A stretch of 64,000 nucleotides of DNA from Escherichia coli. GTDB lineage: Bacteria > Pseudomonadota > Gammaproteobacteria > Enterobacterales > Enterobacteriaceae. Numbering within the stretch: the first letter of the stretch is position 1; each line of letters starts with the position of its first letter. The stretch is taken from NCBI RefSeq assembly GCF_009931435.1, contig NZ_CP043414.1. One strand, 5' to 3'. Below are positions 9,737 through 10,085 of the stretch, piece after piece. Below the pieces are notes generated by a model. That model was not told where the DNA came from and did not search any database. It was given only the letters and a program-made list of their open reading frames with translations. A program made the translations under genes and the position numbers.

Positions 9737-9771
9737 AAAAAAACCGCAATTTGTGAAACACATTGCGGTTT
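9737..9771 (-). terminator. Rho-independent terminator of tRNA-fMet operon (possibly bidirectional)
   Basis: AACCGCAAT/ATTGCGGTT stem, followed by T-run on minus strand, directly 3' of last tRNA. Confidence 0.5.
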
Positions 9772-9788
9772 ATCAGCATCATAAGTGT

Positions 9789-9865
9789 TGGTTGCGGGGG
9801 CCGGATTTGAACCGACGACCTTCGGGTTATGAGCCCGACGAGCTACCAGGCTGCTCCACCCCGCG
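9789..9865 (-). tRNA. metV: tRNA-fMet (initiator, CAU anticodon), 77 nt
   Basis: Exact reverse complement of E. coli initiator tRNA-Met sequence (CGCGGGGTGGAGCAGCCTGGTAGCTCGTCGGGCTCATAACCCGAAGGTCGTCGGTTCAAATCCGGCCCCCGCAACCA). Confidence 0.9.
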
Positions 9866-9898
9866 TCACCGTACTGCTTTACTTCATCAAATTTTGAT

Positions 9899-9975
9899 TG
9901 GTTGCGGGGGCCGGATTTGAACCGACGACCTTCGGGTTATGAGCCCGACGAGCTACCAGGCTGCTCCACCCCGCG
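9899..9975 (-). tRNA. metW: tRNA-fMet (initiator), 77 nt
   Basis: Identical copy; part of 110-bp tandem unit. Confidence 0.9.
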
Positions 9976-10008
9976 TCACCGTACTGCTTTACTTCATCAA
10001 ATTTTAAT

Positions 10009-10085
10009 TGGTTGCGGGGGCCGGATTTGAACCGACGACCTTCGGGTTATGAGCCCGACGAGCTACCAGGCTGCTCCACCCCGCG
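10009..10085 (-). tRNA. metZ: tRNA-fMet (initiator), 77 nt
   Basis: Identical copy; first gene of the minus-strand tRNA operon. Confidence 0.9.

Follow-up and report, generated by a model that had tools for sequence, protein, structure and literature searches.

The metZWV operon of Escherichia coli is said to have been described originally by Kenri et al. in 1994. In strain K-12 it lies at 63.5 min and consists of three identical tRNAfMet1 genes, which form one transcription unit and provide the main supply of initiator tRNA, the level of which tracks gene copy number (PMC3017606). The same source describes the role of the three G-C pairs that mark an initiator, and distinguishes tRNAfMet1, with G46, from tRNAfMet2, the metY product, with A46 (PMC3017606). 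The metV site also carries islands. A type VI secretion system (T6SS) island has been reported there (PMC3032704), and within PAI-CFT073-metV (c3385-c3410) the genes c3405-c3410, annotated as "PTS system, maltose/glucose specific" (PTS, phosphotransferase system), form a conserved set reported in uropathogenic strains, E2348/69 and SMS-3-5 (PMC2831201). The gene pafR, encoding a transcription regulator important in urinary-tract infection, is located on the metV island of CFT073 (PMC8882828). The present analysis concerns a stretch of 64,000 nucleotides (nt) from a genome labelled E. coli (RefSeq assembly GCF_009931435.1, contig NZ_CP043414.1), hereafter the window, in which three initiator tRNA genes in tandem stand next to a low-GC (guanine plus cytosine) gene cassette. 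We read this locus, with a probability of about 0.88, as the known metZWV operon beside the known, integrase-free sugar operon of the paf type. Both halves are already known: the first is a textbook tRNA operon and the second has been investigated as a contributor to fitness in uropathogenic E. coli.

Exactly three tRNA genes were detected in the window by ARAGORN, each a tRNA-Met(CAT) on the minus strand, and the Rfam tRNA model gave 61.4 bits for each of them. They lie in the gene order recD, argA, amiC, insert, three tRNAs, mltA, tcdA, csdE, csdA, which is syntenic with K-12. This is the 63-min region of E. coli, and between amiC and mltA the array represents the metZ-metW-metV operon. Its parts, in the direction of transcription, are as follows.

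10086..10140, minus strand: metZWV leader and promoter region, divergent from mltA (match to a K-12 primer)
10009..10085, minus strand: metZ, tRNA-fMet1, first gene of the operon (ARAGORN, Rfam, initiator marks)
9976..10008, minus strand: spacer 2, 33 nt; the plus strand ends ...TTTTAAT, with A at 10006
9899..9975, minus strand: metW, tRNA-fMet1 (ARAGORN, Rfam, initiator marks)
9866..9898, minus strand: spacer 1, 33 nt; the plus strand ends ...TTTTGAT, with G at 9896
9789..9865, minus strand: metV, tRNA-fMet1, last (3'-most) gene of the operon (ARAGORN, Rfam, initiator marks)
9737..9775, minus strand: predicted intrinsic terminator of metZWV, a 10-pair stem followed by U7 (predicted fold)

The initiator marks are C1 opposite A72, three G-C pairs closing the anticodon stem and an A11-U24 pair, and the variable loop AGGUC, with its G46, is of the tRNAfMet1 type. 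A reading made earlier from the sequence alone (the sequence-only reading) had described three identical 77-nt tRNA-fMet genes with 33-bp spacers repeating exactly with a period of 110 bp. The gene identity, the spacer length and the period stand, since all three 77-nt sequences are the same and Tandem Repeats Finder returned a period of 110 with 2.7 copies and 99% matches; the word "exact" does not, because units 9789-9898 and 9899-10008 match at 109 of 110 positions and differ at offset 107 (G at 9896, A at 10006). Both spacer types, ...TTTTGAT and ...TTTTAAT, are present in other Escherichia genomes too, which makes the one-base difference a stable trait, not noise. Beyond the third tRNA copy there is no further spacer; promoter and leader sequence follow directly. 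Over the region, Rfam gave nothing besides the tRNAs, a single sub-threshold match resembling a small nucleolar RNA being judged to be chance.

The array shares with K-12 metZWV (PMC3017606) the three tandem tRNAfMet1 genes, the neighbours amiC and mltA and the orientation, as well as the 36 nt upstream of metZ and the 33-nt spacer 2. The K-12 primer metZWVko_fp (PMC3017606) corresponds exactly to the reverse complement of this 36-nt segment (10086-10121), and spacer 2 is identical in the window and in E. coli H7, E2348/69 and E69. In H7, a K-12-like strain, spacer 1 differs from that of the window by small indels. Judging from their identity with the K-12 genes, the three genes would be expressed, formylated and used in initiation. 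All three would be read from one promoter on the mltA side, where TATAGT at 10099-10104 on the minus strand is a likely -10 hexamer, followed by a GC-rich stretch; a scan with the sigma-70 consensus did not pick up this promoter. Transcription would stop at the hairpin at 9737-9775, for which the predicted fold gave -16 kcal/mol (z = -3.2) and which is located between the cassette and metV. The remaining Escherichia loci with the cassette have homologous hairpins. In K-12, metV is followed by another terminator hairpin, because the whole amiC-metV intergenic region of the window is the cassette-bearing allele.

This allele was delimited by comparison with the empty-site strain E. coli H7 (locus L001), in which the amiC-metV gap is 73 bp long and holds two terminators. 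Homology between the window and H7 ends at the amiC stop codon and resumes 1 nt before the tRNA 3' end, so that 5.56 kb replaces the whole 73 bp. The block and its flanks contain the following features.

2971..4224, plus strand: conserved left-flank gene amiC, which ends in TAA, whereas empty-site strains have TGA
4225..9788, plus strand: low-GC accessory block, replacing the 73-bp amiC-metV intergenic region of empty E. coli
4396..4470, plus strand: predicted operon leader, an RAT-like sequence (RAT, ribonucleic antiterminator) at 4396-4424 with a terminator hairpin (inverted repeat, predicted fold)
4482..5306, plus strand: antiterminator of the BglG/LicT family, PafR-like (Pfam CAT_RBD, residues 1-55, and PRD, residues 73-160)
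5338..6918, plus strand: PTS EIICB permease, MalX-like (maltose/glucose class), PafP-like (Pfam PTS_EIIC, PTS_EIIB)
6912..8093, plus strand: carbon-sulfur (C-S) lyase of the PatB/MalY family, dependent on pyridoxal phosphate (TIGR04350, 366 bits, over the 340-bit cut-off)
8096..8692, plus strand: sugar-phosphate isomerase with a SIS domain only, KpsF/GutQ-like (Pfam/NCBIfam)
8754..9710, plus strand: D-2-hydroxyacid dehydrogenase, phosphoglycerate dehydrogenase-like (Pfam/NCBIfam)
10294..11391, plus strand: mltA, the conserved right flank, divergent from metZWV, with its ATG at 10294

According to an account attributed to Baum et al. in 2014, pafR and pafP are said to be the antiterminator and the PTS permease of a Bgl-like system. 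The cassette of the window shares with PAI-CFT073-metV a PRD antiterminator, a maltose/glucose-class EIICB and metabolic genes between amiC and metV, and it is 90-97% identical in nucleotides to the cassette of E2348/69; in contrast to that island, the window is without the T6SS part of roughly 26 kb. That a c3405-c3410-type segment lies next to metV was established through homology to the copies at the same site in E2348/69 and HH97. The annotation of E2348/69, an enteropathogenic E. coli, gives the cassette EIICB gene (locus L014, 5339-6919) as a pseudogene interrupted by a stop codon, which probably leaves the operon of this strain inactive.

As in the BglG/LicT/SacY systems, a protein with CAT RNA-binding and PRD domains is encoded beside a PTS permease. 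An RAT-like 29-mer, a candidate RAT element, overlaps a predicted terminator. Unlike those systems, the cassette does not reach the NCBIfam equivalog thresholds for LicT, GlcT or BglG, and its permease is of the glucose/maltose class instead of the beta-glucoside class. Against the LicT model the antiterminator reached 228 bits, under the 300-bit cut-off, with an alignment spanning residues 1-268, and the permease reached 537 bits against TIGR02004, also under the model cut-off. With malX-malY of E. coli K-12 the cassette shares a MalX-like EIICB followed by a C-S lyase of the MalY/PatB family; it differs in having an antiterminator where K-12 has the MalI repressor, in adding the SIS isomerase and the 2-hydroxyacid dehydrogenase, and in its chromosomal site. 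The five genes would form an operon for sugar uptake and catabolism, switched on by an antiterminator of the BglG/LicT type that acts on the RAT/terminator leader.

In the predicted leader, the 29-mer overlaps the 5' arm of a hairpin (4410-4424 paired with 4453-4467) that is followed by a run of T9, and the ATG of the antiterminator gene is at 4482. The 29-mer matches RAT sequences at 21 of 29 positions. A consensus scan missed the leader terminators, which have a long loop or a bulged stem, and direct folding was used instead. The element is conserved in Escherichia, Atlantibacter and Citrobacter, with one compensatory change from G-C to A-U, and a near-identical leader precedes the homologous operon in Enterococcus termitis (locus L012, 6953-7023). 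A second RAT-like copy is present in E. termitis at 7941-7965 of the same locus.

The sequence-only reading had noted that the cassette abuts the operon terminator and lacks an integrase, an attachment-site (att) repeat and a duplication of the tRNA 3' end, and had favoured homologous replacement or an old, decayed insertion. The borders agree with this, as the cassette coding genes end at 9710, the hairpin with its T-run follows at 9737-9775 and metV begins at 9789. Pfam and NCBIfam assign no integrase or transposase domain to any of the five cassette proteins, and with just 429 non-coding bases in 5564 there is no room for an integrase remnant in the block. Near amiC, a 16-mer search that allowed up to three mismatches (<=3) found no copy of the tRNA 3' end, and local alignments for a junction or tRNA 3'-end repeat scored no better than shuffles. 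The cassette was not found in plasmid and phage collections, where only short paralogue matches covering 4% of the query or less were seen. Among the classical island traits, the block shows deviant GC (40.6% in 4225-9788 against about 53% in the flanks), tRNA adjacency, its border lying 1 nt from metV, and variable presence; integrase or integrase remnant, and att repeats with the tRNA 3' end, are the traits that it lacks.

The age of the cassette can be judged from its relatives. The same five genes occupy the amiC-tRNAfMet-mltA site in E. coli E2348/69 and HH97 and, as a scan of one genome per species showed, in another Escherichia lineage (E69), in E. whittamii and in Atlantibacter hermannii. 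Between the window and E. coli of group B2, nucleotide identity is 90-97% in the cassette and 93-96% in the backbone; between the window and A. hermannii the values are 69-77% and 71-80%. Cassette and flanking core genes have diverged to about the same extent in each comparison, which argues for long residence and not for recent transfer and supports the description of the insertion as old. The cassette GC is 11-12 points under that of the flanks in every enterobacterial host, whereas in E. termitis it equals its surroundings (36.7% vs 36-39%); this suggests an origin in a low-GC, Firmicute-like source long ago. An Enterobacter and E. termitis carry versions with four genes. The cassette would have been resident at this tRNA-flanking hotspot before the lineages of E. 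coli B2, E. whittamii, E69 and the window split. Without a recombinase of its own, its presence or absence would then be passed on by homologous recombination in the flanks, amiC on one side and the tRNA array with mltA on the other.

The strongest competing explanation is that the cassette is decayed cargo of an integrative island that targeted tRNA genes (metV here, aspV in Citrobacter) and later lost its integrase and att sites. The right border 1 nt from the tRNA 3' end would suit such an origin, as would two Citrobacter species (sp. MGH106 and FP75) in which the cassette lies in the order yafV-cassette-tRNA-Asp(aspV)-dnaQ-rnhA and abuts the 3' end of the tRNA-Asp gene (loci L008, 6995-12509, and L010, 7008-12510). 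Moreover, metV and aspV are among the most used integration tRNA genes in E. coli (PMC7545054), and the T6SS island, with its 14-nt repeat of the tRNA 3' end, shows that tRNA-directed insertion at metV does take place. Against this origin, none of the eight cassette loci examined, the two of Citrobacter included, has an integrase, a transposase or a tRNA-derived repeat, and hardly any DNA of the block is left unassigned that might conceal a remnant. The block shared across genera extends from about 4331 to about 9685; cross-genus homology begins about 150 nt ahead of the antiterminator gene, breaks off within the dehydrogenase gene and does not reach the tRNA-proximal sequence, which is lineage-specific. 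Decay of a former integrative island is unlikely on balance, though it deserves to be kept in view. A hairpin, GTCGGCTT-GAAAAAT-AAGCCGAC at 4322-4344, about 100 nt past the amiC stop, sits in the lineage-specific segment 4225-4330/4345, outside the cross-genus block, and may terminate amiC transcription in the cassette-bearing allele.

The states of the site were counted over 5426 complete E. coli genomes. The empty amiC-metV configuration was found in 3501 (65%) and the cassette in at least 1681; it directly abuts metV, as in the window, in 595 (11%). In most of the other cassette genomes (roughly 1086 remaining, about 20%), the T6SS island lies between the cassette and metV. The T6SS cluster is absent from the window, in contrast to HH97. 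The left border of this island is a 14-nt copy of the tRNA 3' end (TGGTTGCGGGGGCC, followed at the junction by ACAGTC...), and the junction is the same whether its neighbour is the cassette, as in HH97, or an empty-type intergenic region, as in isolate w264. Repeats of the tRNA-fMet 3' end were located at 26792-26805 of locus L002, 4201-4214 of L015 and 1090-1157 of L004; in cassette-bearing strains the repeat amounts to 26 nt, counting the adjacent ATTCTAATAAAT. Since the left junction is identical with or without the cassette, the T6SS island behaves as an independent unit, a separate and later insertion into the 3' end of metV. PAI-metV as named is thus a composite whose att-like repeats bound the T6SS part only, and the window holds only the older, repeat-less part. 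An att-like repeat, the finding that would have spoken against the sequence-only reading, does exist in other strains; because it belongs to the T6SS island and brackets that island and not the cassette, the earlier view of the cassette is left intact.

The window state could also be secondary, if an ancestral arrangement of cassette plus T6SS island had lost the latter by recombination between the tRNA 3'-end repeats. The composite is about twice as common as the cassette alone (roughly 1086 vs 595 genomes), and recombination between repeats of 14-26 nt would recreate exactly the junction of the window. However, the cassette-only form is found in the divergent E69 and E. whittamii and in A. 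hermannii, the 12 nt beside metV in the window (...CATCATAAGTGT) are unlike both repeat copies of the composite (...ATTCTAATAAAT), and the T6SS island also occupies the empty-type site as a unit of its own. A former T6SS island at the site of the window is improbable.

It had further been proposed that the copy number of the tandem tRNA genes could vary by unequal crossing-over, and such variation is found. A 73-nt query across one tRNA-spacer-tRNA junction was run on the 5426 genomes. A synthetic four-copy query was dropped as a count, because overlapping pieces were joined and two-copy arrays appeared at 100% coverage; it showed that arrays of two and four copies exist. The junction was present in 5193 of the 5426 genomes and was counted 10248 times overall; single genomes had from 1 to 6 junctions, equivalent to arrays of 2-7 copies. 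Of 60 genomes sampled systematically, 54 carried three copies and four carried two, one genome had four and another had five. A five-copy array was verified beside the cassette (locus L003, 1033-1551; spacer order sp1-sp2-sp1-sp2), a two-copy array beside the T6SS island (locus L004, 1144-1330; sp2 only) and a four-copy array in XL10-Gold (locus L017, 805-1211; sp2 three times). As XL10-Gold is a laboratory derivative of K-12, copy-number change can be recent. The spacer orders fit those predicted by register-shifted recombination between units, and unequal crossing-over is the probable mechanism of copy change. Misaligned homologous recombination, or replication slippage, between the near-identical 110-bp units would add or remove whole units and so give rise to natural and laboratory strains with two to seven copies, three being by far the commonest.

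In Salmonella fmt mutants, tandem initiator tRNA genes were reportedly amplified by recombination between units, an observation attributed to Nilsson et al. 2006 in PNAS. The amplification in Salmonella took place under laboratory selection, whereas the 2-7 copies here are found in public genomes, with no known selection. This work, listed among the references of two later papers (PMC11721125; PMC10954465), is the experimental precedent for the variation described here.

Some of the genomes without a junction appear rearranged at the locus, through either real rearrangements or assembly breaks. In BL21(RP) (locus L005) mltA adjoins a yafV/ISAs1 region without any annotated tRNA, and in IH5 (locus L016) one 74-nt tRNA-Met stands beside a truncated yraJ. 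A. hermannii has three tRNA-fMet genes at the site (locus L007, 12525-12941), but its second spacer is 152 nt long instead of 33 nt, so there is no uniform 110-bp repeat there. The available sequence of the E. whittamii locus (L011) ends after the second tRNA.

A more far-reaching proposal would be that the cassette, a unit without a recombinase, has come to lie time and again exactly beside tRNA 3' ends (at metV in both Escherichia and Atlantibacter, and at aspV in Citrobacter) by a route that is directed to tRNA flanks and leaves no att repeats and, separately, that the 2-7-copy polymorphism serves as an adaptive dosage dial and does not reflect neutral slippage; we consider this a long shot. 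The idea that the threefold array arose by chance or through faulty assembly can be dismissed almost entirely, since a three-copy array is present at the site in about 90% of the sampled complete genomes and has been documented experimentally in K-12 (PMC3017606), while nothing beyond the possibility in principle of mis-assembling short tandem repeats speaks for it.

Several points weigh against the reading of the locus as metZWV beside an old, integrase-free paf-type operon. The identification of the cassette with the paf or c3405-c3410 segment rests on location, gene content and secondary citations. Its spread through homology in the flanks is an inference, and the aspV-side cassette in Citrobacter hints at a past mechanism of tRNA-directed insertion. 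The change may have been a gain or a loss: the empty 73 bp, with two terminators of its own, is no deletion derivative of the cassette allele, so that one allele replaced the other or both are very old. The copy counts rest on public assemblies, in which short tandem repeats can collapse or expand, and junctions may be under-counted in the low-identity tail of the 73-nt query matches.

As by-products, the analysis provides a survey of the site states across 5426 complete genomes, evidence for the composite nature of PAI-metV as named, and a first-pass count of natural copy number, which bears on studies that connect initiator-tRNA dosage with the fidelity of initiation and with the tolerance of formylation defects.

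The source of the window appears to be a somewhat divergent Escherichia lineage under the RefSeq label E. coli. A match to the region at 99% identity or more was found in only 18 of 5425 complete genomes. Backbone genes of the window (for example 1-4224 and 10086-14000) are 93-97% identical to those of ordinary E. coli, compared with 96.5-98.5% between two ordinary E. coli strains, and for mltA the nucleotide identity is a normal 95-96%. Farther along the window, the small RNA genes for GcvB (14409-14614, minus strand) and CsrB (37709-38068, plus strand) lie where they are expected, and GC dips elsewhere, to 42.5% and 44-46%, occur at 22001-24000 and 58001-62000.

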